A stretch of 64,000 nucleotides of DNA from an uncultured delta proteobacterium (GTDB lineage: Bacteria; Desulfobacterota; Binatia; JACPRU01): positions 32,001 through 96,000 of the forward strand of contig CAVUWD010000018.1 of NCBI GenBank assembly GCA_963745025.1, given 5' to 3'. A program made the position numbers and the translations under genes. The notes under the pieces were generated by a model. That model had not been told where the DNA came from. It made no database searches and saw only the letters and a list, made by a program, of their open reading frames with translations. Each line of letters starts with the position of its first letter. Position 1 is the first letter of the stretch. Below are positions 4,955-22,564 of the stretch, piece after piece.

Positions 4955-5140
4955 GGGCGCGAACATGAAGTGGTAGACGATCAGCTGGCGACGCCCCTCG
5001 AACAGATCGAGCAGGCTCGCCTCGCCGTTGGGACCCTCGAACACGTACTTCTTGTCGATGCGGACCATCGGCTGGCGCCGCCGCTCGGCGGCCAGGGCGT
5101 CGCGGTCGCGGGTGGCGGCCTTTTCCTTCGCTTGAATGCA
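4955..5140 (-). pseudogene. DUF899 (thioredoxin-like) fragment
   Basis: [56 protein letters not shown] read on the minus strand. Confidence 0.75.
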
Positions 5141-5231
5141 GGGGCCGCGGCCAGCCCCTGGCGCTTTCGCACACCACGCGGCATATGCTTCCTGCGCTCA
5201 CCAGACACGAGATCCCCATAAGGCGGACCAG

Positions 5232-6320
5232 ATGAGAAGCCACACGATATCCAACCTCGGGCTATGCACCGCGCTCGCTCTCATTGCCTGCTCCCAGAAC
5301 CCCGACCGCGATCGGCAGGACGCGGCTCGCAGGCCGGCAGCGGGGGCGGCGCCCGCGAAGCCGGCGCCCTTCGATAAGGGCCCGGTGAAGATCGCCCTGG
5401 TCCAGTACAGCGGCGCGGGCGATTACTTCCAGCTCTGGACCAAGGGCGCCCGTCAGCAAGCCGACTCCATCGGATTCGAGATGCAGCTCTACGACGCGCA
5501 GGCGGATGATGCCAGACAGGCCGCCGACATGAAAGCCGCGATAGCGTCCCGCGTCGCCGGCATCATTGTGGACCATGGCCGAGCCAACACCATGTGCCCG
5601 CTGATCAACCAGGCGACCGATGCCGGCATCGCGGTCGTGGTGTACGACGTCAAGGTGGCCGACTGTGCCCCCAAGGCCGTCGAGACGGCGCAGAACGACG
5701 TCGATCTCGCCAGCCTGGTTCTTACTCAGATGGCCAAGGATATCGGCGATGGCGTTGCTGTCGGCTATGTGAACCCGTTCGTCATCGCCCCGCTCGAGCG
5801 GCGCGACGTCGTTTGGAAGAAGTTCGTCGCCGACCATAAATGGAAGCAGAAGTTTGCCGTCGGGAAGTTCAGCCATGCCGTAGCGACCGACAACGCGAAG
5901 CTCGCCGACCGCGCGCTCAAGGCCAACCCCGGCGTGAAGGCGATCTTCGCCCCCTACGACGAGTTGACCAAGGGCACCGTCTCGGCCATCGAACAAAACC
6001 ACCTGGGCGCCAAGGTGGCCGCGTACGGGATCGATATCTCGAATGCCGACATCGAGCTGATGACCAAGAAGGACAGCCCCTGGAAGGCGACCGCCACCAC
6101 GGACCCGAGCGCGGTCGGAGCCGCTGTCACCCGCACCCTGGCCATTCAGCTGGCCGGCCAGCTCGGCAGCAAGGAAGTCGTGTTCCCAGGCGTTCTGGTC
6201 ACCCAGTCCTTCCTGGTGGAGCACCAGATCAAGAACATGGACGACCTGCGGGCCAAGCTGCCCGATCTGAATCTTGGCAAGATCGCTTCGGCTCCCTGGA
6301 TTCGGTCGATCACGTTCTGA
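5232..6320 (+). CDS. Sugar ABC transporter substrate-binding lipoprotein (RbsB-like)
   Basis: Lipobox LIAC; periplasmic binding protein type 1 motifs (AIFAPYDEL, YGIDIS). Confidence 0.85.
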   Translation: MRSHTISNLGLCTALALIACSQNPDRDRQDAARRPAAGAAPAKPAPFDKGPVKIALVQYSGAGDYFQLWTKGARQQADSIGFEMQLYDAQADDARQAADMKAAIASRVAGIIVDHGRANTMCPLINQATDAGIAVVVYDVKVADCAPKAVETAQNDVDLASLVLTQMAKDIGDGVAVGYVNPFVIAPLERRDVVWKKFVADHKWKQKFAVGKFSHAVATDNAKLADRALKANPGVKAIFAPYDELTKGTVSAIEQNHLGAKVAAYGIDISNADIELMTKKDSPWKATATTDPSAVGAAVTRTLAIQLAGQLGSKEVVFPGVLVTQSFLVEHQIKNMDDLRAKLPDLNLGKIASAPWIRSITF

Positions 6321-6586
6321 CCAGGGCGGCGCCCCTGCGCGGGCGGCACAATCGTGATCCAAGCCACGGCCCGCCGCCCCGTCGTTCGGCACGATACAGG
6401 TGTTCAGGGCTGCAAGTCGCCCTCGCATCAGCAATTGCATAGGAGGACCCATGCGGGACAAAGAGACCATCGAGCGCGCCCAGGAAGACGCTGACGCCGG
6501 ACATCGGAGGAACTGAAATGAATGATCGTGCGGTCCTTGCGGGCATCGGCATGGGGGCTCTTCAAAAACCGGCCACAGCGACCCGT

Positions 6587-6671
6587 GAGGATAGCCGGCA
6601 TAAGTGGCCGATGTCGGCATAAGGCCCGTTCTCGAACGCCCGGCTTCCCGCTTTGACGGGGCGCACAAAGC
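6587..6671. repeat. 85-bp direct repeat, copy 1
   Basis: Matches 7993-8077 with one mismatch; contains CGGCATAAG twice. Confidence 0.95.
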
Positions 6672-6761
6672 ACTCGATCGTGTGTGCGCGCGGTGGGCTT
6701 GTAAGCGATGACACGAACGCCTACGATTGGCTTCGGACTTCTACGGACGGGGGACAAGGCC

Positions 6762-7298
6762 ATGCGCTTCACGAAGCTCGTGCTCGCAGGAGCCGTTCTC
6801 TCACTGACGACGCTGGCTGCGAGCTCAGTCGCGGCGGCCGACTCGGCCCAGCGAAAGGTGTGCACGACGGGGGACGCTCTCTCGAACTTTGAAGCGCCGC
6901 TTCAGCACATCATCGGTGACTTTTCCTGCCAGTACCGCCTCTTCCTTGACGGAAGGACCTTCACCTACTGCGAGGACGACGTGATCCTGGGCGGAATCAA
7001 TCCGCTCGCCGAGTACAAGGCACTGGGCTGGTCCCGCGAAGAGGGAATTGCTGATCTCGAGCGCACTGCCGACCGGGTATGGGTCGATGGCGTCGAGCAG
7101 CCACTCATGCGCACGGCCTACAAGGACGGCCAGCACCCCGTCTTCGGCCACAGTGTGTACCAACACCGCGCCTTCATAACCCAGCTTGCGGTCGGCGACC
7201 ACGTCAGCTACTGGGAGGAGACCCTCGACGGGTCAGTGGACGCTACCGCGACCGTCTATCTCCGCATCCTCCCGCGCACGGACGCGTTCTGTAGCTGA
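6762..7298 (+). CDS. Secreted hypothetical protein
   Basis: Signal peptide MRFTKLVLAGAVLSLTTLAASSVAA; natural-looking composition. Confidence 0.65.
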   Translation: MRFTKLVLAGAVLSLTTLAASSVAAADSAQRKVCTTGDALSNFEAPLQHIIGDFSCQYRLFLDGRTFTYCEDDVILGGINPLAEYKALGWSREEGIADLERTADRVWVDGVEQPLMRTAYKDGQHPVFGHSVYQHRAFITQLAVGDHVSYWEETLDGSVDATATVYLRILPRTDAFCS

Positions 7299-7309
7299 GG
7301 TTGGCAGTC

Positions 7310-7380
7310 TGTTGGTAAGCGCGCTCGTGACGACGCTGGCCGGCATGGTCGCGTTCTTCCGCTGGAAGCGCTGGTTCTGA
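7310..7380 (+). pseudogene. CorA-like C-terminal remnant
   Basis: LAGMVAFFRWKRWF-stop resembles the last helix of CorA. Confidence 0.4.
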
Positions 7381-7654
7381 CGGAAAATTCCTTGACGGGG
7401 GGCGGGTCAGGGAACGCGGCTCGCGTGGTGAGGCGTGTATGTATCTCGCTCATGGAGTCCGGTGGCTATTCACTGCAGTGGATCGTTCCATCTCGAGCTT
7501 CCGCAAGCCCGGGGGGGTCGCCTGAACTGCTACCACTTTGCTACCGGAAGCAGCCGAGGTGAGCAGGACCAGGAAGAGCCGGGTAGGTGAAAATCCCCGG
7601 CTCTTCCTCACTCACGTGACATGACGTGAGCCGACATGATGTCCCCCGTCATTA

Positions 7655-7696
7655 TTCCTAATCGTGGGGTCGCGCATTCGAGTCGCGCCGGGGGCA
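7655..7696 (+). tRNA. 3' half of tRNA-Arg(CCT); probable att-site duplication, not a full gene
   Basis: TTCCTAA loop, TCGTG, GGGTC, GCGCA-TTCGAGT-CGCGC T-arm (one mismatch), CGGGGGC-A; 5' half absent. Confidence 0.8.
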
Positions 7697-7704
7697 TAAC
7701 GAGA

Positions 7705-7992
7705 TCAGGCACTTGCGTCCTTCTTTGCCGAGTCGATTGCTACCACCTGCCCCATTCTTACCGTATTCGGGCTGAAGGTCACGCGCTCAGCGGCTCGGCG
7801 CAGATCGTCCTCGGACACGATGTTGTAGCGCTCGAAGACGCTTCGGGTCTTCCACCCCCCGATCTTCATGATCACGTCCTCGGCCTCACCGCTTCTGCGG
7901 TAGTTCCTGGCCATCGTCCTTCGGAAGTCGTGCGGCCTTCTGCCGGGGATCTTGGCTCGCTTGCAGGCTGATCGCCATGCCTTGTACGGGAA
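7705..7992 (-). pseudogene. Tyrosine integrase C-terminal remnant
   Basis: PHDFRRT (HxxR) and IGGWKTRSVFERYNIV (catalytic W/Y); ends beside the tRNA fragment. Confidence 0.88.
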
Positions 7993-8077
7993 GAGGATAG
8001 CCGGCATAAGTGGCCGATGTCGGCATAAGGCCCGTTCTCGGACGCCCGGCTTCCCGCTTTGACGGGGCGCACAAAGC
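7993..8077. repeat. 85-bp direct repeat, copy 2
   Basis: Matches 6587-6671; abuts the integrase truncation point. Confidence 0.95.
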
Positions 8078-8109
8078 GCAGACTGAGCCAGGCGGTACCG
8101 GGGGCACCG

Positions 8110-8385
8110 CAGACGGGCCGGGACGGTCTTGAAGTCGATGCCGAACGCGGGATGCGGCAGGTATTGCCGTTGACAAGCGTGCCGATCCGCGCCCGCTTCG
8201 TCGCCTGAGCGAGGGCGGCGAGCGTGGTCCAGCCCTCGAGGCACGGCCCTTCGGGAGACACGAGGATCGGGTAGAAGTGATCGAAGTTCCAAAGGAGTCG
8301 TAGTCCCAGCGGTCGCCCTTCTGCCGAAGTCGAGCATCTGCGGCGATTCGACGAGCTGCTGGCGTGTCTGGATGCCGAACCGCAT
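8110..8385 (-). pseudogene. LLM-class (F420-dependent) oxidoreductase N-terminal remnant
   Basis: MRFGIQT...WNFDHFYPI...CLEGWTTLAALAQATKRARIGTLVNGN spread over shifted frames. Confidence 0.8.
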
Positions 8386-8410
8386 CGGGCGCGTTGCCAT
8401 GCGTGCCTTT

Positions 8411-9613
8411 CTAAATTTCTCCGAAAAAGCGCTGGCGCGTCGTCTCGTCCGACGGTGCTTCCGGCCCGCTCATCGGGCAATCGGCAACCCGCCGCGCGTC
8501 CTGCGCGATCAGCGGCAGGGCGCGGGCCCGGCGCGCGTCGGCCTCCGGGCCGAGTTCCATGAAGAGGTCGGCGAACCAGCCGTCGACCCTGCGGCAGGTC
8601 GCGTAGTGGCGATCGTGCTCGGCGGCATAGGCGTGCCCCGCCGCGTCCCAGTCCGATTCCGCGAGCAGGCAATCGCGGAGCACGCGAACGTCGCGCGTGG
8701 TGAGCGACATCCCCTGTCCCCACGTGGGGTCGCTCGTCGCGGCGGCATCTCCGATCAGCGCGACGCCGTCCCGATAGGGATGATCGACCCACGAGTCGGC
8801 GCCGTCGAAGGTCGCCAGTGGTCCGGCGGGCTTCGCCTGCGCAAGCATGTCGGCGGGAGCCCCGATCGCCACGAGAGACTCGCGGAATCGCGGAATCGCG
8901 CTGGCACCCTGAAGCCGCTCGATCTGCCGGTCCTTGTGAAAGCCGTAGTAGGCGCGCACGCGCCCGTTGCCTTGCGGGAAAAAATAGCCGACGAGACCGA
9001 GCGGAGGGGCGGCGAAGTGATGGAACGTATCGGCTGCGACGGCGAGATCGTCGAGGAGGACTCCGCAAAAGAGCAGACGCGGTGGGTCTTGCCTCGCGGT
9101 GAACCCCGCCCATCGACGCACCGCCGAGCCGCGTCCGTCGCCCGCTACGACGAGCCGCGCGGACGCTTCCTCGGTCTTGCCCGCCTGCGCGATCGTGACC
9201 CGAGGCGGCTTTCCCGGCTCCACGTGCCGAACGTGCGCCCCGCGCCTCACCTCCGCCCCAGCACTCACCGCGGCTTCGAGAGCGAGTTCCTGCATCCTGG
9301 GGTGATAGAAGGTGAGAAAGCCGCTACTCTGAGGCGTGGTCGCCGGGAGGTCGCGCCGGAGCATCTCCACCCCGCCGACGCGGACGCTCCACCAGCGGAG
9401 GATGTTGCCGCAGCTCTGTCTCAGCGTTTCGTAGAGCCCGAGCTGCTTCAGGTTCTCGACGCCCCACGGTGCCAACGCCTCGCCGCGCACGCGGTCCTTG
9501 AAATGGACCTCGCGCTCGACTACCAGCACGCGGGCACCGCGCTCGGCCATGACCTTGGCGAGCGCCGATCCACCGAGCCCGCCACCCACGGTGATGATGT
9601 CGTAATTCCGCAT
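8411..9613 (-). CDS. FAD-dependent monooxygenase/oxidoreductase
   Basis: GGGLGG, DG motif, LIGDAA...DPTWGQGM. Confidence 0.88.
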   Translation of the reverse strand: MRNYDIITVGGGLGGSALAKVMAERGARVLVVEREVHFKDRVRGEALAPWGVENLKQLGLYETLRQSCGNILRWWSVRVGGVEMLRRDLPATTPQSSGFLTFYHPRMQELALEAAVSAGAEVRRGAHVRHVEPGKPPRVTIAQAGKTEEASARLVVAGDGRGSAVRRWAGFTARQDPPRLLFCGVLLDDLAVAADTFHHFAAPPLGLVGYFFPQGNGRVRAYYGFHKDRQIERLQGASAIPRFRESLVAIGAPADMLAQAKPAGPLATFDGADSWVDHPYRDGVALIGDAAATSDPTWGQGMSLTTRDVRVLRDCLLAESDWDAAGHAYAAEHDRHYATCRRVDGWFADLFMELGPEADARRARALPLIAQDARRVADCPMSGPEAPSDETTRQRFFGEI

Positions 9614-9677
9614 CGAGACCTCCCGATGATTCGAGCGCGCGAGCCCCGGCTATAGATTGGAAGGCACGGGAAAGTCG

Positions 9678-10670
9678 ATGACGTTTTGGCGGCGGCACTG
9701 GTTCCTGGTCGGTCTCGCGCTGGTCAGCGCCGGCGCATTTGCGTTTCCCGAAGGCGGAGCGGCGCTGCGCCGAACGGGCTGGGCGCTGCCGCTGCTCACC
9801 GCGACGAGCCTCTTCCTCTCCGGGATCACGCTCGAGACCGCCGGGCTTCGCGAGGGCGTCGACGTGCGCGGGCTCGCGCTCGGGCTGTCCTCCACCTACG
9901 TCGTGGCCCCCGTGCTCGCCATCGTCTTCGTGCGACTCTGGGGACCCGCGAATGGCGGCGCGGGATCCGAGGGGTATTTCTTCTTCGAGGCGATGATGAT
10001 CGTCGCGGCGCAGGCGAGCACCATCGCCTCCGCGCCCGCGCTGACGCTCGTTGCGGGCGGGAATCAGGCGCTCGCGCTGCTGATCACACTGTCGTCGAAC
10101 CTGATGACCTCGCTCGTCACGCCGCTCCTCCTGCGCTGGACGGTCGGCACCGTGGTCGCGTTTCCGGTCGGGCGGATGATGATGGAGGACGCGATGGTCG
10201 TGCTGCTGCCGGTCGTCGTTGGACAAGCCGCCCACCGCCTCTTCTGGTCGCGGCTGCGGATCTTCATGCCGGCGATCGTGCGGCTCGCACAGGCGATCAT
10301 CCTTCTCTTCGTCTACACGGGGGTCGCCGCGGCGGCCGGCCGCCTTTCCGAGCGGCCGGCGCTGATCCTCGCCTTCGTGGCAACCGCCGCATCGCTTCAC
10401 ATCGCGCTGCTCGTCTGGAACTACCGAACCGCGACCTGGCTCGGCCTCTCACCGGCAAACCGAGTGGCGGTCGTTTTCTGCGGCTCGCAGAAGACCCTGC
10501 CGAACGGCATCTACCTCTGGGACACGTTCTTCCCGTGGAACCCGCACGGCGCGCTCGCCCTCGTCTGCTACCACGTGTTCCAGCTGGTTCTCGACAGCCT
10601 CCTCGTCCCCTCGCTGTCCCCGCGGCCGGCTGCCGTCGCGGAGGTGGAGGACGTCGCCGATGGGGCGTGA
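9678..10670 (+). CDS. Bile acid:sodium symporter family transporter
   Basis: Multiple TM helices; STIASA...AGGN and FCGSQKTL motifs. Confidence 0.85.
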   Translation: MTFWRRHWFLVGLALVSAGAFAFPEGGAALRRTGWALPLLTATSLFLSGITLETAGLREGVDVRGLALGLSSTYVVAPVLAIVFVRLWGPANGGAGSEGYFFFEAMMIVAAQASTIASAPALTLVAGGNQALALLITLSSNLMTSLVTPLLLRWTVGTVVAFPVGRMMMEDAMVVLLPVVVGQAAHRLFWSRLRIFMPAIVRLAQAIILLFVYTGVAAAAGRLSERPALILAFVATAASLHIALLVWNYRTATWLGLSPANRVAVVFCGSQKTLPNGIYLWDTFFPWNPHGALALVCYHVFQLVLDSLLVPSLSPRPAAVAEVEDVADGA

Positions 10671-10982: not shown

Positions 10983-14667
<3,685 letters not shown>

Positions 14668-14698
14668 GAAAGGGGGATCGGCGTAGGGCCGCTGCGTC

Positions 14699-14914
14699 CG
14701 CCTCGAATGCTTCGGACGGCGAGCAACGCGGTCGGTTGTGGTCGGCCCGTACTCGGGGCGATCACAACCGACCGCAACGGCGCGGAGCGCGGAGGCAGTA
14801 ACCCGCGACCTGGTCTATTGCTTCCGCGCTTCGCGCGGTGGCTGGATCTGCCGGTCGACCCGAGTACGGGCCGGCCGGCAGATCCAGCGCTTCACGGATC
14901 TCCGACGCGTGTGG
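14699..14914. repeat. ~220-bp palindromic three-hairpin element, copy 1
   Basis: Colinear similarity to 43722-43942; long inverted repeats. Confidence 0.9.
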
Positions 14915-15983: not shown

Positions 15984-17210
15984 ATGACGACACCCGCCCT
16001 CTCGCTCTACTGGTTTCTCTACCTCGGGGCGCTCGGCGTCCTGCTGCCGTTCTTCAGCCTTTATCTGAGCGACAATGCCGGGCTGAACGCGACCGAAGTG
16101 GGCGCGGTGGTGACGATGTCTCCGCTCGTCGCGCTGATCGCTCCGACCGCGTGGGGGCGGATCGCCGATCGCTCGGGCTCGCCGATACGCGTGCTGGCGG
16201 CCGCCACGCTCGGCGCCGCCGTCTTCACGGCGATGTTCCCCTGGCTCGAGGGCTTCTGGCTGCTCGCCGCGGGCGCAGCCGCGCTTGCGCTCTTCGCGAC
16301 GGGCGTGATCCCGCTCGTCATCTCGGTGACGCTCGCGGCGCTCGGCGAGAGCGCGCTCTCGGCGTTCGGGCGGGTCCGCGTGTGGGGCACGGTCGGCTTC
16401 CTGGTCCTCGTCGTTCTGTTCCCGGTGGCGCTGCACGCGTTCGCGGCGGGCCGCGTTCCTCCGTCGCGACCGGCTGGACCGTCGGAGCCGTACCTGTGGG
16501 TGATGTTCCCGGCGGCCTCGTCGTTGATCCTCCTCTCCGCGCTGCTCGCCTGGCGCATTCCCGAGACGAGGCAGCTGCAACGCCACGCGCGTCGGAGCGG
16601 CTGGCTCGAGCTTCGCCGCCACGTGCCGTTCGTTCGTTTGCTCGTGCTGTCGGTCGGCACGTACCTGTTTTTCCAGGGCCCGATGAGTCTCTTTCCGCTC
16701 TATCTTCGCGGTCACGGGCGCGGGCTCGAGACGCTCAGTCAGATGTGGATTCTCATGCTGCTGCTGGAGATCCCGCTCATCGCCTTCTCCGGCACGGCAT
16801 TGCGCCACCTCGGCCCGCGCGGACTGCTCGGCGCCGGCCTGGCCGCGGGCGGCCTCCGCTGGCTGGTCTGCGGCCTGGTTCACGATCTTCGCGCGGTCTA
16901 CGCGGTGCAGCTGCTGCACGGCGTGACCGTGGCGGGAGTCGGAGTGGGCTCCGCGCTGTACGTCGAAGCGTCCGTTCCCGCGCGGCTGCGTTCGACCGGT
17001 CAGGGGCTGAACGCCACGGCCGGCGTCGGGATCGGTTCGATCCTCTCGAACGTCGCGGCCGGCTGGCTGATGGACCACGTCGGCGTGAACGCTCCCTTCG
17101 TGGTCGGCGGTAGCGGCGCGCTGCTGCTCGCGATGATGATTCCGCTTTGGTTGCCGCCGCCGAGCCAGCTCGCGCGGAGCGAGCCGGCGCTCGAGTCAGC
17201 GCCGCAGTAG
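15984..17210 (+). CDS. MFS transporter (MFS_1-like)
   Basis: About 12 TM helices; WGRIADR, FGRVRVWGTVGF, QLLHG. Confidence 0.88.
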   Translation: MTTPALSLYWFLYLGALGVLLPFFSLYLSDNAGLNATEVGAVVTMSPLVALIAPTAWGRIADRSGSPIRVLAAATLGAAVFTAMFPWLEGFWLLAAGAAALALFATGVIPLVISVTLAALGESALSAFGRVRVWGTVGFLVLVVLFPVALHAFAAGRVPPSRPAGPSEPYLWVMFPAASSLILLSALLAWRIPETRQLQRHARRSGWLELRRHVPFVRLLVLSVGTYLFFQGPMSLFPLYLRGHGRGLETLSQMWILMLLLEIPLIAFSGTALRHLGPRGLLGAGLAAGGLRWLVCGLVHDLRAVYAVQLLHGVTVAGVGVGSALYVEASVPARLRSTGQGLNATAGVGIGSILSNVAAGWLMDHVGVNAPFVVGGSGALLLAMMIPLWLPPPSQLARSEPALESAPQ

Positions 17211-17327
17211 GAGGCCGCGCCACAGATCGCCCCCGTTGGTCGCGAACCGGCTCCGGCCAGGCAGCTTACCGAGTTAGCCTCGAGCCAGCAGTTTCGCCGA
17301 CGTTGCTGGCGCCGAAAGTTTCGCTCT

Positions 17328-18059
17328 TCATGCCAGACTTCCGGAAGACGCCGGAGCCCGCTCCGGGACAACCATCGGCAGAAGCCGCCGCCGACGGGTC
17401 CGCTTCAGCTCTTCGAGCTGCGAGCGGGCGGCCGCATCGGCCTCCGCGGCGCGGATCTTGCCGAGCCGCCTTTCGAGATCGCTGTCTCCGAGATCGCGGG
17501 TCATCTTCGCCTCCTCGACGAGCCGGTTGACGTGGTCGCGGACCGCGTCGAGCGCACGGATGTCGGCGTCGGGTGACAGCCCGGAGAGCGTTTCCTGAAA
17601 TCTCAGCCGTGCATGCGCGTTGGCCAGCCGTGCCAGCATGCGTACCTTCTCGTCGCGCAGGCGCGCGATCTCTCCTTGGAACGTCGAAAGATTCTTCTTC
17701 GCGGTCTCCGCCTCTTCGTCGAGCTCGTGAAGCTCGCCGGCGAGGCGCTCGACTTCCTGCGACAGGCCGTCACGCCGGCCGATCAATACCAGCGCCGCGT
17801 CGTCGTCGTCACCATCGATGGCGAGCTCGAGCTGCCGGCGAACGCGGGCGAGCTCGGCGGATTTCTGCCCGAGCTCGCGGCCGAGCTTCGTCCGCATGTA
17901 GAGAATACCGGCGGCGGCCGTGCGGAGCTTGCCGTACTGATCGAGCCGCTCCTGGATCGCGGCCTCGTAGACCGCGCCGGGGTTTCGGTGCTCGCGACCG
18001 AGGATCCATTGATTGAGGATCCCGCGTACGAGATTGGTCAGTCGAGAAAAGAAGCGCAT
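17328..18059 (-). CDS. PspA/IM30-family protein
   Basis: FFSRLTNLVRG N-terminal amphipathic helix, NP..VYE..I, long coiled coil, ARSQLEELK. Confidence 0.85.
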   Translation of the reverse strand: MRFFSRLTNLVRGILNQWILGREHRNPGAVYEAAIQERLDQYGKLRTAAAGILYMRTKLGRELGQKSAELARVRRQLELAIDGDDDDAALVLIGRRDGLSQEVERLAGELHELDEEAETAKKNLSTFQGEIARLRDEKVRMLARLANAHARLRFQETLSGLSPDADIRALDAVRDHVNRLVEEAKMTRDLGDSDLERRLGKIRAAEADAAARSQLEELKRTRRRRLLPMVVPERAPASSGSLA

Positions 18060-18166
18060 CTGTTCCTCCCTGGATGGAAAGCGAGCTTCAGCTCCGCACT
18101 CGCGGGCCGATCGCGTAGAAGCCGATGAAGTAGACGCGCAGCGCGCCCGCCATCCGAAACCCTCCG

Positions 18167-19558
18167 CTACGGCTCCGCGTCCTCGGCGGTGATGCCGAGC
18201 TCGCGCATCTTCTGCTGGAAGTTCTGGCGATACATGCCGATCTCTTCGGCCGCCTTGGTGATGTTGCCGCCGTTTCGTCGCAACGCCTGGACCAGGAACG
18301 CGCGCTCGAAATCCGCCACGGCGCGGTCCTTTGCCTCGCGAAACGATACCGGCATCTCCGGCGCGGCCGTAGGGGCCGCCGGAGTCGGCGCCGCGGTCTT
18401 GTCGCCGAGCAGATCCGCCTCGGTGATCTCCGCTGCCGGGGCGAGGAGCAGAGCCTGCTCGACAGCCGAGCGGAGCTCACGCACATTGCCTTTCCAGCGG
18501 TGCGCCACGCAGGCGCGCATCGCGTCGGCGGTCAACGGCTTGGCGGGGCGGTTGAAGCGTGCCGCGGCTTCCTTGAGGAAGTGATCGACGAGGAGTGGAA
18601 CGTCCTCACGCCGCTCGGCGAGCGGAGGAATCACCAGCTCGACGACGCGCAGCCGGTAGTAGAGGTCTTCGCGAAATCGGCCAGCCCGCACCTGCGCCTC
18701 GAGATCCTGGTTCGTGGCGGCGATCACGCGTACGTCGACCCGAATCGGCTGATTGCCTCCGACGCGCTCGAATTCTTTTTCCTGGAGCGCGCGCAGAAGC
18801 TTCGCCTGGGTCTCGAGCGGCATGTCGCCGACCTCGTCGAGAAAGAGGGTGCCGCCGTCCGCGGCCTCGAATTTTCCCTCGCGGCGGGCGATCGCGCCGG
18901 TGAACGCGCCCTTCTCGTGACCGAAGAGCTCGCTCTCGACGAGCTCCCGTGAGAGCGCGGCGCAGTTCATCTTCACGAGCGGCCTCCCGCGCCGCGGGCT
19001 GCGGTAGTGGAGCGCGCTCACGACGAGCTCCTTGCCGGTGCCGCTCTCGCCGCGAACTAGGACGGTGACGTCCGTGTCGGCGACCTTGTCGATGGTTTCG
19101 AACACGCGGCGCATCGCGGGGCTCCGCCCGACGATCTGCCCGGCAAACGCATCCTGGACCTGCTCGAGGAGGCGTCGGTGGTCGCGCCGGAGAAGCGCGG
19201 TCTCCATCACCCGGCGGACGAGCACGCGGAGCTCGTCGTTGTCGAAGGGCTTCGGCAGATAATCGGCGGCGCCGTTCTTCATCGCCGCCACGGCGATCTT
19301 CTCGGAGCCGTAGGCGGTGATCATGACGACCGCCGCATCCGGATCGACGCGCCGCGTGTGCTCGAGCACCGCCATACCATCGGTGTCCTTCAGCGAGAGA
19401 TCCGTGATCACCACGTGAAAGCTTCCCGGCTCGATGCGCGTGAGCGCCTCTTCGCCGCTCTCGACCGTGTCGACCTCGTATCCTTCCTTGGCGAGTAGGC
19501 TCCGCAGCGCGAGCCGCATGCCCTTCTCGTCGTCGACGATGAGAACGCGTCCGGGCAT
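18167..19558 (-). CDS. Sigma54-dependent response regulator (NtrC family)
   Basis: Receiver domain, GESGTGKE, GAFTGA, FREDLYYRL, Fis-type HTH. Confidence 0.95.
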   Translation of the reverse strand: MPGRVLIVDDEKGMRLALRSLLAKEGYEVDTVESGEEALTRIEPGSFHVVITDLSLKDTDGMAVLEHTRRVDPDAAVVMITAYGSEKIAVAAMKNGAADYLPKPFDNDELRVLVRRVMETALLRRDHRRLLEQVQDAFAGQIVGRSPAMRRVFETIDKVADTDVTVLVRGESGTGKELVVSALHYRSPRRGRPLVKMNCAALSRELVESELFGHEKGAFTGAIARREGKFEAADGGTLFLDEVGDMPLETQAKLLRALQEKEFERVGGNQPIRVDVRVIAATNQDLEAQVRAGRFREDLYYRLRVVELVIPPLAERREDVPLLVDHFLKEAAARFNRPAKPLTADAMRACVAHRWKGNVRELRSAVEQALLLAPAAEITEADLLGDKTAAPTPAAPTAAPEMPVSFREAKDRAVADFERAFLVQALRRNGGNITKAAEEIGMYRQNFQQKMRELGITAEDAEP

Positions 19559-19561
19559 CGG

Positions 19562-20725
19562 TCAGGCCTTCGCGGGGAGCGGCAGGCGGATCGTGAACTC
19601 GGTGCCACGGCCGACCTCGCTCGCCACCTCGATCGTCCCTTCGTGAGCCTCGACGATCTTCCGGGAGATCGCCATGCCGAGGCCCGTGCCCTTTTCCTTG
19701 GTCGTGAAGAACGGATTGAAGATGCGTCCGATCTTGTCCTCGGGGATGCCGCACCCGTTGTCGCGAATGCGCACGGTGGCCTGGTCGGGACGGCCGTTGT
19801 CGATGAACAGCTCGAGGCTTCGTCCCTCCGCGACCGGCGCGAGCGCATCGATCGAGTTGTCGAGGATGTTCGTGAACACCTGCTTCAGCTTCTCCGTATC
19901 GGCCAGCACGGTGGGACCCGTGATGTAGTTCCGCGCCACGCGCACGTGCGCGTCGTCGATCTTGGCGCGCATCTGCGTGAGCGCCGAGTCGACGATCGTG
20001 GCGAGATTCACGCGCGCCGGCGCGTAGTCTTCCTCCTTCGCATACTTGAGCAGGTGCGAGATCCGCCGCTCGACGCGCTCGAGCTCCTCGAGCGCGACCT
20101 TGCCGTACTCGACGTTCTCGGGAGAGGTCGGGTCCTCGCCCATCTGCTGGACCAAGCTCTTCGCGGCGGCGATCGGGTTACGGATCTCGTGGGCGATGGT
20201 CGACGAAAGCTCGTCGATCGACGCCTGCTTCTCCGACGTCATGGCAGCCTTTTCCCGCCGCACCTCGCGCTCGACGACTGGATCGAAATAGCGCTCCTTC
20301 AGCTGATGCGATCCGAAGACCCCCATGTAGTGCGCGAAGACGCCGACGCCCCAGCCACCCGCAGGCCATAGGAACCATGGAATCCAAGGGGAAGTGAGCA
20401 GGTTGATCAATGCCAGAAGAGAGATGACGCCGAGATAGCTGACGAGATGGACATAGAAGCCGAACTGCGCAGCAGCCCGGCGGCGAGTGCGGCGAACGGT
20501 GTTGTCGCCGCTCACATCGTCCTGCTCGGTCGCGGAGCGAGATCGGTCGCGAAGGTCCTCCTCCCAGTACCGGCGTCGATGACGATGCCAATGCGGGCGC
20601 CGAGCTCTCCTCCATTCGTCGCCGCATTGGGTCACCGCGGCGGCGGTGTTCCCGCGGTACCACCGAAGCTTGCGCCTGAAGTGGCAAAACGCCCAGAAGG
20701 CGATGAGAAACCCGAAGAAGGCCAT
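19562..20725 (-). CDS. Sensor histidine kinase with a 2TM-like membrane domain
   Basis: FYVHLVSY...WFLWPAGGWGVG; HEIRNP, DNGCGI, FNPFFTTK, GTGLG. Confidence 0.92.
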   Translation of the reverse strand: MAFFGFLIAFWAFCHFRRKLRWYRGNTAAAVTQCGDEWRRARRPHWHRHRRRYWEEDLRDRSRSATEQDDVSGDNTVRRTRRRAAAQFGFYVHLVSYLGVISLLALINLLTSPWIPWFLWPAGGWGVGVFAHYMGVFGSHQLKERYFDPVVEREVRREKAAMTSEKQASIDELSSTIAHEIRNPIAAAKSLVQQMGEDPTSPENVEYGKVALEELERVERRISHLLKYAKEEDYAPARVNLATIVDSALTQMRAKIDDAHVRVARNYITGPTVLADTEKLKQVFTNILDNSIDALAPVAEGRSLELFIDNGRPDQATVRIRDNGCGIPEDKIGRIFNPFFTTKEKGTGLGMAISRKIVEAHEGTIEVASEVGRGTEFTIRLPLPAKA

Positions 20726-20741
20726 GTCCTCGCTCAGTGAC

Positions 20742-20756
20742 GCAACCTGCGTGCCA
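20742..20756 (-). promoter_or_regulatory. Sigma54 -24/-12 promoter
   Basis: TGGCAC-GCAGG-TTGC on the minus strand, an exact consensus match. Confidence 0.75.
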
Positions 20757-21021
20757 AATTCTAGTCCCAATGGAAGACTTGAGAAAACAGGCGCGCGTGC
20801 GCCGGCCCGCATGCGCGAAGCTGCGGGATCGTGCGGCCGGCCGCAGTCCGGTCACTGCGTCGCTCGGCGGTTGTATCGGCGCCGATTCTTCTCGGATACT
20901 CAGCGGCCGGTGCCGGCGGCGCGGGACAGGACCTCGGCCCCGGTGGGGATTTCGTCGGCTCGCTTCATGTGTTGGATCCTGGCGCCCGGTACCTGCTCGA
21001 CGACGCAGAGCGGGGCCGCCG

Positions 21022-22564
21022 CTACGGCGTTTCGAGCGCCGGAGTCGGGCCCTCGGGCGGCAGATTCTGTGTCGGCCGCGCGGCGCCCCGCGGCGTCGGG
21101 CCGGCGATCTGGTACGGGATCCCGAGGACCCGTTTCATCGCCATCCTCGTGCGCCACGACAGGTAGCAGCTCAAGTAACTGAGGGCCGCCGTTGGGTCGA
21201 GGATCGGGTTCTTGATGCCCTCGAGCTGGGCGAGGGCGAGCACCTGTTCGCTGACGCTCACCGGGCAGCCCTCGAGCCGGATCACCTGCGCGCTCCGCGA
21301 GGCGCGGAGCTTCTTCGTGACCGTGACGAACTTGACGAAGATGTCGGCGTTCTTCGCCTCGCGCGGGTTTTTCTGCGAGCGATCGACGTAGAGGCTGTTC
21401 ACCTGGAGCGGGCTGCCGGCGACGCTTCCGTGAAACGTCGCGCAGTCGCCGATGAAGACGATCTTCTCGCCCGGCTTGGCGTCGATCTCTCCGTCGTAGG
21501 CGCCGAACACGATATGCAGGCGTGGGCGGCTGCGCAGCTTGTCGTCGCAGGCGCGGTCGAACTGGCGCAGAATCTCGATGGCCTCCTCCATCGCGCCCGG
21601 GCAGCCGCCCCAGCAATAGTCTGGCCCCGACCCGCCCGGCGGGGGCCCGGAGTAGGCCTTGACGTTCGTGCCCGCAAAGTACGTCTTCGACGCGGACGAG
21701 CCCCGTGCGAAACCCCCTTGCGCGCGCCTGCGCCTGCGCGAGCGTGACGTCGCCTTCGACGTCGATGTCGTCGAGATCGATCGGGCCGAAGCCAAGCTCC
21801 CAGGCCAGGCGGATGTGGTCGACGCGTCTCGGGTCGAGGCCGATGATGCGGCAGCACACGGCGTCGAAGGCCACCTGGTTGTCACCCATGACGATGAGCT
21901 TCAGGTCGAAGGGAAGCGGTGTGAGCATCCGCCCCTCGCCGGCGACGATCGCGTCGATGGCGATGAACTGTGGCTGGATGACGTGCTGCAGATCGGCGAC
22001 CTTCTCGTTCAGCTTGTGATCGTGGTCGATCAGGCGATGCCGGTCGTCCTGGATACCGATGTAGTTCTTCATGCTGAACGTGACGGTCGTCCAGGGATGC
22101 GCCTTGAACTTGGGACAGTTGACGAAGAAGTCGGCCTTCGCCACCGGCTCGGGGGTGAAGAGCGCGTCGCGCAGGCGCCCCGGGTGATAGAGCGGGATCT
22201 CGACCTGCGGCACCTCCTCGAAGTGATACGCCTTCGTGCCGGTTCGCTCGAGCACGGGATAGAAGCCGGCATGGCGGAAGGCGAAGCGGGTCGGCACGGT
22301 GATCCCGCAGCGCTCGCCGACGGCGAGCTCCTCGAGATCAGGACGCGCGCGGCTGCGAAGCGCGCGCAGCACGCCCTCGAGAAACTCCGGCCGGGTGTGC
22401 GCGTGCGGGAACTGCGGGCCCGAGGCCACGCAATTCGGCTTCACGAGCGTCCGACCGTGCGGTCGAAGATCCAGAGCCTCGAGGCCTTCGCGGACGATCG
22501 TCTGGATTCGATCGACGTCGTAGTCCGGGCAGGAGCGGATGATGATTCGGGGTCGTCTCATCAC
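21022..22564 (-). CDS. DUF362-domain protein with a +1 frameshift at about 21682
   Basis: LVKPN, HTRPEF, PKFKAH...TFSMKNYIG; C-terminal CWGGC/IGDC/GCP portion in another frame. Confidence 0.85.

Follow-up and report, generated by a model that had tools for sequence, protein, structure and literature searches.

A PspA/IM30 gene behind a 2TM-type kinase and an NtrC-family activator: a probable sigma-54 envelope-stress operon in an uncultured Binatia bacterium

The locus and its source genome

Three co-directional genes, encoding a sensor histidine kinase, an NtrC-type response regulator and a PspA/IM30 family protein, lie in that order on the minus strand of a 64-kb stretch of DNA from an uncultured delta proteobacterium of the Binatia (assembly GCA_963745025.1, contig CAVUWD010000018.1, positions 32,001–96,000; this whole stretch of 64,000 nucleotides [nt] is hereafter the window, and all positions refer to it). 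A sigma-54 type −24/−12 promoter motif and, farther upstream, a palindrome precede the set, and the list of open reading frames (ORFs) of the window holds no genes beyond these three between the promoter and the pspA stop. PspA/IM30 proteins are bacterial relatives of ESCRT-III and a main defence of the inner membrane, and their control is known in detail in few models, namely PspF/PspBC, LiaFSR and, in mycobacteria, ClgR.

The source genome measures 5.65 Mb at a completeness of 92.65 per cent. It encodes RpoN and has 22 full-length matches to Sigma54_activat, one match to the 2TM domain and two to PspA (PF04012). Single-base assembly errors are possible, as other genes of the window show apparent frame breaks; the kinase, regulator and pspA genes are themselves intact.

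The sensor kinase

The kinase gene (20725..19562) was characterized by Pfam, its translation, alignments of 12 and 50 sequences, hydropathy, linker composition and an AlphaFold2 model. Its maximal ORF (20812..19562) contains the −24/−12 motif, and the true translation start therefore lies downstream of the motif. The first ATG past the motif, at 20725, follows the GC of the −12 box by 17 nt and opens a frame of 388 codons including the stop. The N-terminus read from this ATG, MAFFGFLIAFWAFCHF, agrees with the N-termini of distant relatives. In order, the protein comprises an N-terminal hydrophobic helix (residues 1–17 are hydrophobic), an Arg/His/Trp-rich linker (residues 17–86, with 20 Arg, 3 His and 4 Trp among 70 residues), a 2TM hairpin, a DHp domain with His179 and an ATP-binding domain. 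Pfam assigns 2TM (PF13239; 65.1 bits against a cut-off of 24.8), HisKA and HATPase_c, and finds no HAMP, PAS or GAF domain in the kinase; the H-box His179 and the N, G1 and G2 boxes are intact.

The AlphaFold2 model, built on 50 sequences (mean pLDDT of 79.3, with low confidence for residues 42–70), places helices at residues 2–41, 55–111 and 119–197, separated at 112–118 by a loop of about 7 residues. The modelled helix 119–197 is unbroken and joins the last membrane helix to the H-box helix that carries His179. Histidine kinases of the intramembrane-sensing type receive their input through membrane helices only; their outer loop is very short, and sensory domains such as PAS, HAMP and GAF are absent. 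As modelled, the kinase fits this build, with an input part made of membrane helices and, in addition, a charged cytoplasmic linker of 70 residues. Across 50 family members, the linker spans 29–122 residues and consists of 19.7 per cent Arg, 10.4 per cent Glu, 5.2 per cent His and 4.9 per cent Trp.

Residues invariant in the 50 sequences include R79, R83, F90, H93, Y97, W117, F118, P121, W125, G126, G128 and H132. The corresponding signature, GFY.H ... WF.WP..GWG.G...H, also occurs in stand-alone 2TM proteins of 88–98 residues elsewhere in the phylum, and it is therefore a property of the 2TM domain and not of its fusion to a kinase. Stand-alone 2TM genes (L118–L126) encode proteins of 88–129 amino acids that carry the kinase's basic helix along with the His/Trp/Gly signature, and one of them (L126) consists of two tandem 2TM units. 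For 10 stand-alone 2TM genes from this phylum, flanking ORFs were scanned (33 ORFs at 9 of the 10 loci); they encode neither PspA nor a two-component system and share no theme.

Matches to 2TM occur in 23 genomes of a 301-genome sample of the phylum. These fall in kinase-length frames (407–559 amino acids) in 5 genomes and in frames of 59–146 amino acids in the rest, and all 5 genomes with kinase-length frames belong to the class of the window, which contributes 10 genomes to the sample. In a large protein collection, 480 of 554 candidate cluster representatives match kinase residues 70–175 (E-value of 1e-5 or better); 2TM, HisKA and HATPase_c occur together in 119 of the 120 matches listed, which bear generic names only.

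The N-terminal hydrophobic helix is present in 42 of the 50 kinase sequences. In a comparison with 20725..20680 of the window, the kinases of L025 (from the same genus), L027 and L036 lack it; they start at TTG or GTG behind an AAGGAG site, some 30 nt past the promoter. Part of the kinase family can therefore do without the helix.

The regulator and PspA

The regulator gene (19558..18167), characterized by Pfam, translation, NCBIfam and Protein Data Bank (PDB) matches, starts 3 nt past the kinase stop. Its product matches Response_reg (100.8 bits), Sigma54_activat (250.3 bits), AAA_lid_14 and HTH_8, a Fis-type helix-turn-helix (HTH). The phospho-acceptor Asp of the receiver (in VITDLS), the GAFTGA motif of the AAA+ domain and the Fis-type HTH together make it an NtrC-family response regulator of the bacterial enhancer-binding protein class. 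Its best solved relatives in the PDB are NtrC1 and NtrX, and its best NCBIfam matches, AtoC and NtrC, both fall under their cut-offs.

The third gene (18059..17328) encodes a protein of 243 amino acids that was assigned by Pfam, by alignment with solved chains and by an alignment of 20 operon PspAs. It matches PspA_IM30 (PF04012) at 70.3 bits against a cut-off of 33.9, with residues 4–221 covering profile positions 3–217 of 220, and its residues 2–206 align with solved Vipp1/PspA chains, of which the Vipp1 chains are best. In the 20 operon PspAs, the N-terminal helix is conserved, as is the basic tail at the C-terminus (ELKR.RR..L.P).

The genome's second PspA-like gene, of 195 amino acids, lies at another locus (L002; G000 C11:561654..568736). 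There, a vWA-like protein (by reading of its sequence), the PspA-like protein, a membrane protein and an activator that reads as GAF plus sigma-54 AAA+ are encoded on one strand, and no convincing −24/−12 site was found upstream. Both PspA genes of the genome thus neighbour a sigma-54 activator.

The promoter and its upstream sites

The sequence TGGCACGCAGGTTGC at 20756..20742 (minus strand) is the sole exact match to TGGCAC-N5-TTGC on either strand of the 64 kb. Shuffled sequences gave a mean of 0.08 matches, and 8 of 100 shuffles had one. In relatives, we accepted as a promoter a GG-N10-GC site with at least 8 of the 10 fixed letters upstream of the kinase, and such a −24/−12 site is present in 28 of 28 related loci. 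When the window is added, the site is exact in 9 of the 29 loci, matches 9 of 10 letters in 11 and 8 of 10 in 9, with GG and GC always kept. The flanks of these anchored sites are low in information (on average 0.22 bits per position upstream and 0.17 downstream). As a background, both strands of the 5.65-Mb genome hold 214 sites of 9/10 or better with GG and GC.

Upstream of the promoter on the same strand, the palindrome CGCAGTGACCGGACTGCG (20859..20842) begins 103 bp before the −24 box and matches TGCAGT-N6-ACTGCA at 10 of 12 positions. Palindromes of this form with at least 9 of 12 positions occur 60–115 bp upstream of the promoter in all 29 loci, the window included, which lends independent support to the promoter sites. 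The palindrome is often doubled, with copies at −104 and −90 (14 bp apart); the genome background is 0.27 matches per kb. The palindrome is kept even where the kinases share just 41–46 per cent identity with that of the window, including a locus titled Myxococcota (L049). Promoter, enhancer and regulator therefore stay linked, and this is the chief reason to think that both sites are used by the regulator encoded in the operon. The palindrome is likely the binding site of this activator.

A weaker palindrome-like element on the minus strand, CGCAGC-N6-CATGCG (20825..20808; 7/12, read by eye), lies 34 bp from the first, centre to centre, and similar CCGCAG..CATGCGG strings were noticed by eye, without count or control, in L025, L026, L027, L029 and L036.

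The −24 box is abutted by a sigma-70-like match, TTCTCA-16-TAGAAT (20785..20758, minus strand), the only one that the motif scan found in 17000..21000 (shuffle mean of 0.2). A TAnnAT-like hexamer ending 2 nt before TGGCAC is found in 7 of the 29 loci (the window, L025, L026, L027, L036, L037 and L038), all from the sublineage of the window. In this sublineage, to judge by the motif, a sigma-70-like promoter may supply the basal expression that a positive loop needs.

Transcription from sigma-54 promoters usually starts 11–13 nt after the GC, which would put the start at about 20730 and give the kinase a leader of about 5 nt. The spacing from promoter to ATG is as in the window in L026, L028 and L030 and amounts to 38–114 nt in other lineages.

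Conservation among relatives

Two sets of relatives were compared. Among 40 related genomes, the kinase match extends into the 2TM part in 13 (E-values of 1.3e-74 or better); 12 were analysed, and G005 was excluded because its contig ends inside the gene. A pattern scan with one genome per species yielded 80 loci, of which 16 (L037–L052) match across the 2TM part. These 16 bear titles such as Candidatus Binataceae, Candidatus Binatus and 'delta proteobacterium', and L049 is titled Myxococcota. The two sets do not overlap, with a top identity between them of 93.8 per cent, and the closest public relatives of the locus are titled Candidatus Binataceae or Binatus.

The kinase and regulator genes lie side by side in 28 of 28 related loci, and the conservation across these loci shows that the arrangement is not a chance one. 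PspA comes next on the same strand in 10 of 10 sufficiently long loci of the first set and 10 of 12 of the second, or 20 of 22 together; L026, L027, L044, L045, L048 and L051 end too early to be scored. The earlier note on this DNA, made from the sequence alone, had read the locus as an exact TGGCAC-N5-TTGC motif before a co-directional set formed by a kinase with a short transmembrane segment, an Arg/His/Trp-rich linker and a 2TM-like domain, an NtrC-type regulator and a PspA/IM30 gene. Each of these readings agrees with the scans, hydropathy, linker composition and Pfam matches given above, and the two comparisons with relatives that it had proposed, of synteny and of the −24/−12 motif, came out in its favour.

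The Myxococcota-titled locus, L049, encodes two tandem kinases, a regulator and PspA, and its palindrome precedes the promoter by 91 bp. The window locus differs in having a single kinase; the 2TM type of kinase, the NtrC-type activator, PspA, the sigma-54 promoter and the palindrome are common to both.

Several relatives carry additions to the operon. In a Binatus-like sublineage (L033–L035, L039–L043 and L046), a gene for about 160 amino acids stands between regulator and pspA, and the two copies scanned (L039 and L042) encode a PEMT-family phospholipid methyltransferase. An ORF of about 120 amino acids with a lipoprotein-like N-terminus and no Pfam match follows pspA in L033, L039, L041–L043 and L047. 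In L052 (7297-8470), from a metagenome-assembled genome titled 'Deltaproteobacteria', an ORF of 113 amino acids that encodes a coiled coil and a D-Ala-D-Ala carboxypeptidase (Peptidase_S11) replace PspA. An envelope theme is supported by these additions, namely the PEMT-family enzyme, the lipoprotein-like ORF and the Peptidase_S11 of L052.

Frame breaks run throughout the kinase, regulator and PspA genes of L036 (G006:C3:165905-174714), where either the copy is decaying or the assembly is poor. One further candidate, L068 (titled Aminicenantes; 5001-10542), pairs a 2TM-like kinase of 35 per cent identity with an activator but has no PspA, and we regard it as a different system. Its activator has GAFTDA instead of GAFTGA, and the exact TGGCAC-N5-TTGC motif occurs there twice (7393 and 8835), before a single-receiver gene and before other genes.

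The regulator-pspA spacer

A spacer of 107 nt (18166..18060, minus strand) separates regulator and pspA; it was studied by terminator scan, folding, Rfam search and comparison with relatives. It holds a GGAGG ribosome-binding site before pspA. The scan found no terminator-like site in 18060..18166, the predicted RNA fold of the spacer is no better than that of shuffles (z of 0.53), and the spacer has no Rfam match. A 21-codon ORF within it was taken as spurious, not being conserved in the same-genus relative L025, where the spacer sequence as a whole is not conserved either. In relatives, the regulator-pspA gap measures −4 nt (L028), 17 nt (L030), 18 nt (L031), 1 nt (L032) and 78 nt (L029), and about 550–570 nt where the PEMT-family gene is inserted. 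The four lineages with a gap of −4 to 18 nt speak for a single transcript.

Comparison with known systems

PspF of enterobacteria, which has neither a receiver nor a sensor domain, is kept inactive by PspA. The enterobacterial Psp system, in which pspF is divergent from pspABCDE, resembles the locus in its PspA-family effector, its sigma-54 promoter (which, at the level of the motif, also precedes the pspA operon here) and its upstream activator site. It differs in that the activator described here has a receiver and a cognate kinase and is encoded co-directionally in the same operon. Escherichia coli PspF is 38 per cent identical to the AAA+ and HTH parts of the regulator, which scores 278.2 with the phageshock_pspF profile against a cut-off of 443.55 and has Arg at the position of PspF W56, a residue that we take to be the PspA contact. 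The PspA of the window is 21 per cent identical to E. coli PspA and reaches 48.7 bits with the gammaproteobacterial equivalog TIGR02977, whose cut-off is 242.95. PspB (PF06667) and PspC (PF04024) had no match in the 92.65 per cent complete genome, and the controls matched in E. coli.

The LiaFSR-LiaIH system of Bacillus is similar in that its two-component system, which has an intramembrane-type kinase, induces both its own expression and that of a PspA homologue, as would be the case here. A kinase of the LiaS type has HAMP and HisKA_3 domains, and the system includes a NarL-type regulator, the inhibitor LiaF and the anchor LiaI. In contrast, the kinase of the window has HisKA (PF00512) and neither HAMP nor HisKA_3, and its regulator is NtrC-type (Sigma54_activat and HTH_8) and not NarL-type. 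No LiaF or LiaI gene is present within the operon, the extent of the search for them. Beyond PspA, the two systems have no homologous part in common.

The nearest named profiles belong to AtoSC and ZraPSR of E. coli, the latter an envelope-stress system built on the same logic. The kinase resembles AtoS and ZraS, and the regulator resembles AtoC, NtrC and ZraR, with scores far below the equivalog cut-offs throughout (AtoS, 200.8 vs 646; ZraS, 152.4 vs 479; AtoC, 459.7 vs 714; ZraR, 395.7 vs 760). The AtoSC and ZraSR matches are limited to the catalytic core, whereas the locus has a different sensor part (2TM) and a different output (PspA).

The locus thus belongs to neither Psp nor Lia; it places a PspA/IM30 gene under an NtrC-family two-component system whose kinase is of the 2TM type. 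By analogy, it may be called Psp-like in its predicted sigma-54 dependence and Lia-like in its control by a kinase, with the logic alone in common. The term 'Psp/Lia hybrid', under which the earlier note had placed it, therefore holds as an analogy and fails as a statement of membership, as there is no homology to LiaFSR beyond PspA and the regulator did not pass the tests for PspF. The same note's further proposal, of a different architecture that combines an intramembrane-type kinase, a receiver-bearing sigma-54 activator and PspA, is backed by the conservation of this combination behind a −24/−12 promoter, and its suggestion of probable autoregulation gains support from the upstream palindrome in 29 of 29 loci.

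The literature searched, which for PMC11237479 excludes supplements and figures, contains no description of a receiver-bearing sigma-54 activator with its kinase in a pspA operon, nor of PF13239. In the portions of PMC11237479 that were covered, the two-component contexts reported are receivers fused to an HTH domain, regulators were not systematically searched for, and the Lia features also appear. PMC9239133, in its covered portion, reports HTH regulators near pspA in Acidobacteriota, and the covered portions of PMC4641369 and PMC3162934 describe no kinase with a receiver-bearing sigma-54 activator in a pspA operon.

Proposed mechanism and alternatives

We consider the locus to be, with a probability of roughly 0.7, a three-gene self-activating sigma-54 envelope-stress operon with PspA as its output. 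Having no outer sensor domain, the kinase would read some property of the membrane through its 2TM hairpin, whose last membrane helix, in the model, passes as one helix into the histidine-bearing DHp helix. It would then phosphorylate the adjacent NtrC-type regulator, which would bind the TGCAGT-N6-ACTGCA palindrome about 100 bp upstream and spend ATP to open the sigma-54 promoter before the kinase gene. A single transcript would raise kinase, regulator and PspA together, with PspA as the working output at the membrane and a candidate brake on the positive loop. We infer that the operon's own regulator uses this site and that the three genes are co-transcribed here, and likewise the nature of the signal.

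That the circuit is self-contained is suggested by two results. No other convincing palindrome-promoter target was found in the genome, and the operon PspA is the sole PF04012 match in the whole genome of 9 relatives. One other genomic site, C8:79504, pairs a promoter-like motif with a 10/12 palindrome; we take it as a chance occurrence, as the ORFs downstream include no convincing gene.

Several points weigh against this interpretation. The relatives are kin and not independent samples, and their promoter sites were chosen by motif scan, so that the information at the scored letters is partly circular. Two of the 22 sufficiently long loci, L037 and L052, have no downstream PspA. A kinase leader of about 5 nt would be unusual, and in three close relatives a longer leader goes with the absence of the N-terminal helix. 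With at least 22 activators in the genome, another could serve this promoter. The regulator-pspA spacers of the window (107 nt) and of L025 (131 nt) have room for a separate pspA promoter. Finally, one metatranscriptome (X20) contains two organism-specific 151-nt contigs on 20414..20688, with 1 and 3 differences; this sole signal from an RNA library could be carried-over DNA and is uninformative on start, strand and level. Other RNA and DNA pieces, on 18560..19060, were rejected as operon transcripts, as they derive from other organisms and match over a short length of the conserved AAA+ core.

Among the alternatives, the one that survives best, although we hold it to be rather unlikely, makes PspA an input as well as the output. 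As in the enterobacterial pair of PspA and PspF, free PspA would hold the kinase or the regulator off, and membrane damage would draw it away. Some brake is required in a positive loop, and besides kinase and regulator only pspA is conserved in the operon; further points in favour are the tail and N-terminal helix conserved in operon PspAs and a long, Arg/Trp-rich kinase linker whose character is conserved. Against it, the W56 position of PspF is Arg in this regulator, and the N-terminal helix and much of the linker are absent in some close relatives. A complex prediction for kinase residues 1–175 with PspA, run on two alignments, gave scores of 0.00 and 0.00 and counts neither for nor against this alternative.

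It is less probable still that pspA is merely adjacent and read from its own promoter in the spacer, and that the two-component system has no target but itself or acts on targets elsewhere. The length of the spacer would permit this, each pspA has its own ribosome-binding site in the operon loci compared, and the spacer of the window contains a weak GG-N10-GC string (TGGCGGGCGCGCTGC) that matches 7 of 10 letters. However, the motif scan found no site of 8/10 or better in the spacers of the window and L025, the spacer sequence is not conserved even inside the genus, and in four lineages the gap, at −4 to 18 nt, is too short to hold a pspA promoter. In addition, PspA stands behind the regulator in nearly all loci long enough to be scored, and a search of the genome turned up no second credible target of the regulator.

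Least probable of all is that another of the 22 predicted sigma-54 activators of the genome acts on the motif and palindrome while the adjacent regulator acts elsewhere. Half sites of the TGCA type are frequent in the NtrC family, but palindrome, promoter and regulator remain associated down to 41–46 per cent kinase identity, one Myxococcota-titled locus included, and no other promoter with this palindrome and a convincing downstream gene was found in the genome.

Neighbouring sequence

A DUF362 gene (20900..22564, minus strand) lies directly upstream of the operon. Its Pfam match is limited to residues 40–239 of a 554-codon ORF, and a protein-like C-terminal part of its product is found in another frame (overlapping ORF 21022..21885); a frame break near 21900 is likely. 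Between palindrome and promoter, at 20790..20803 (minus strand), a 5-bp GC stem is followed by a T-rich tail, and it could mark the end of the upstream DUF362 transcript; terminator-like matches are not enriched near it (3 found against 2.4 expected in shuffles). Farther away, a methionine-synthase-like ORF of 1272 codons (10983..14801, plus strand) ends in Arg/Ala-rich nonsense over its last quarter, and a plausible C-terminal part of the protein is encoded in another frame (ORF 13918..14667), which makes a frame break or assembly indel near 13900-14100 likely.

Significance

The operon as we read it would represent a third logic of PspA control, in which a kinase made almost wholly of membrane helices drives a sigma-54 activator. 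Promoter and enhancer are conserved together with the operon in an uncultured, widespread group, here represented by a soil and sediment bacterium. The kinase-regulator-pspA unit, palindrome included, is found in lineages as distant as those titled Binataceae and Myxococcota. A bolder view, which we put forward tentatively and think doubtful, is that the unit is a portable, self-contained membrane-repair circuit with PspA as both effector and sensor, in which the kinase reads the state of the bilayer or the proton-motive force by way of the invariant His/Trp/Gly signature in its 2TM hairpin and of PspA docked on the Arg/Trp-rich linker. If true, the PspA-titration logic of enterobacteria would here be joined to phosphorelay control. 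Being a compact three-gene system with defined DNA sites, the operon could be rebuilt in E. coli to probe the membrane signal of a minimal kinase, and it would give a first function to an uncharacterized Pfam domain, 2TM.

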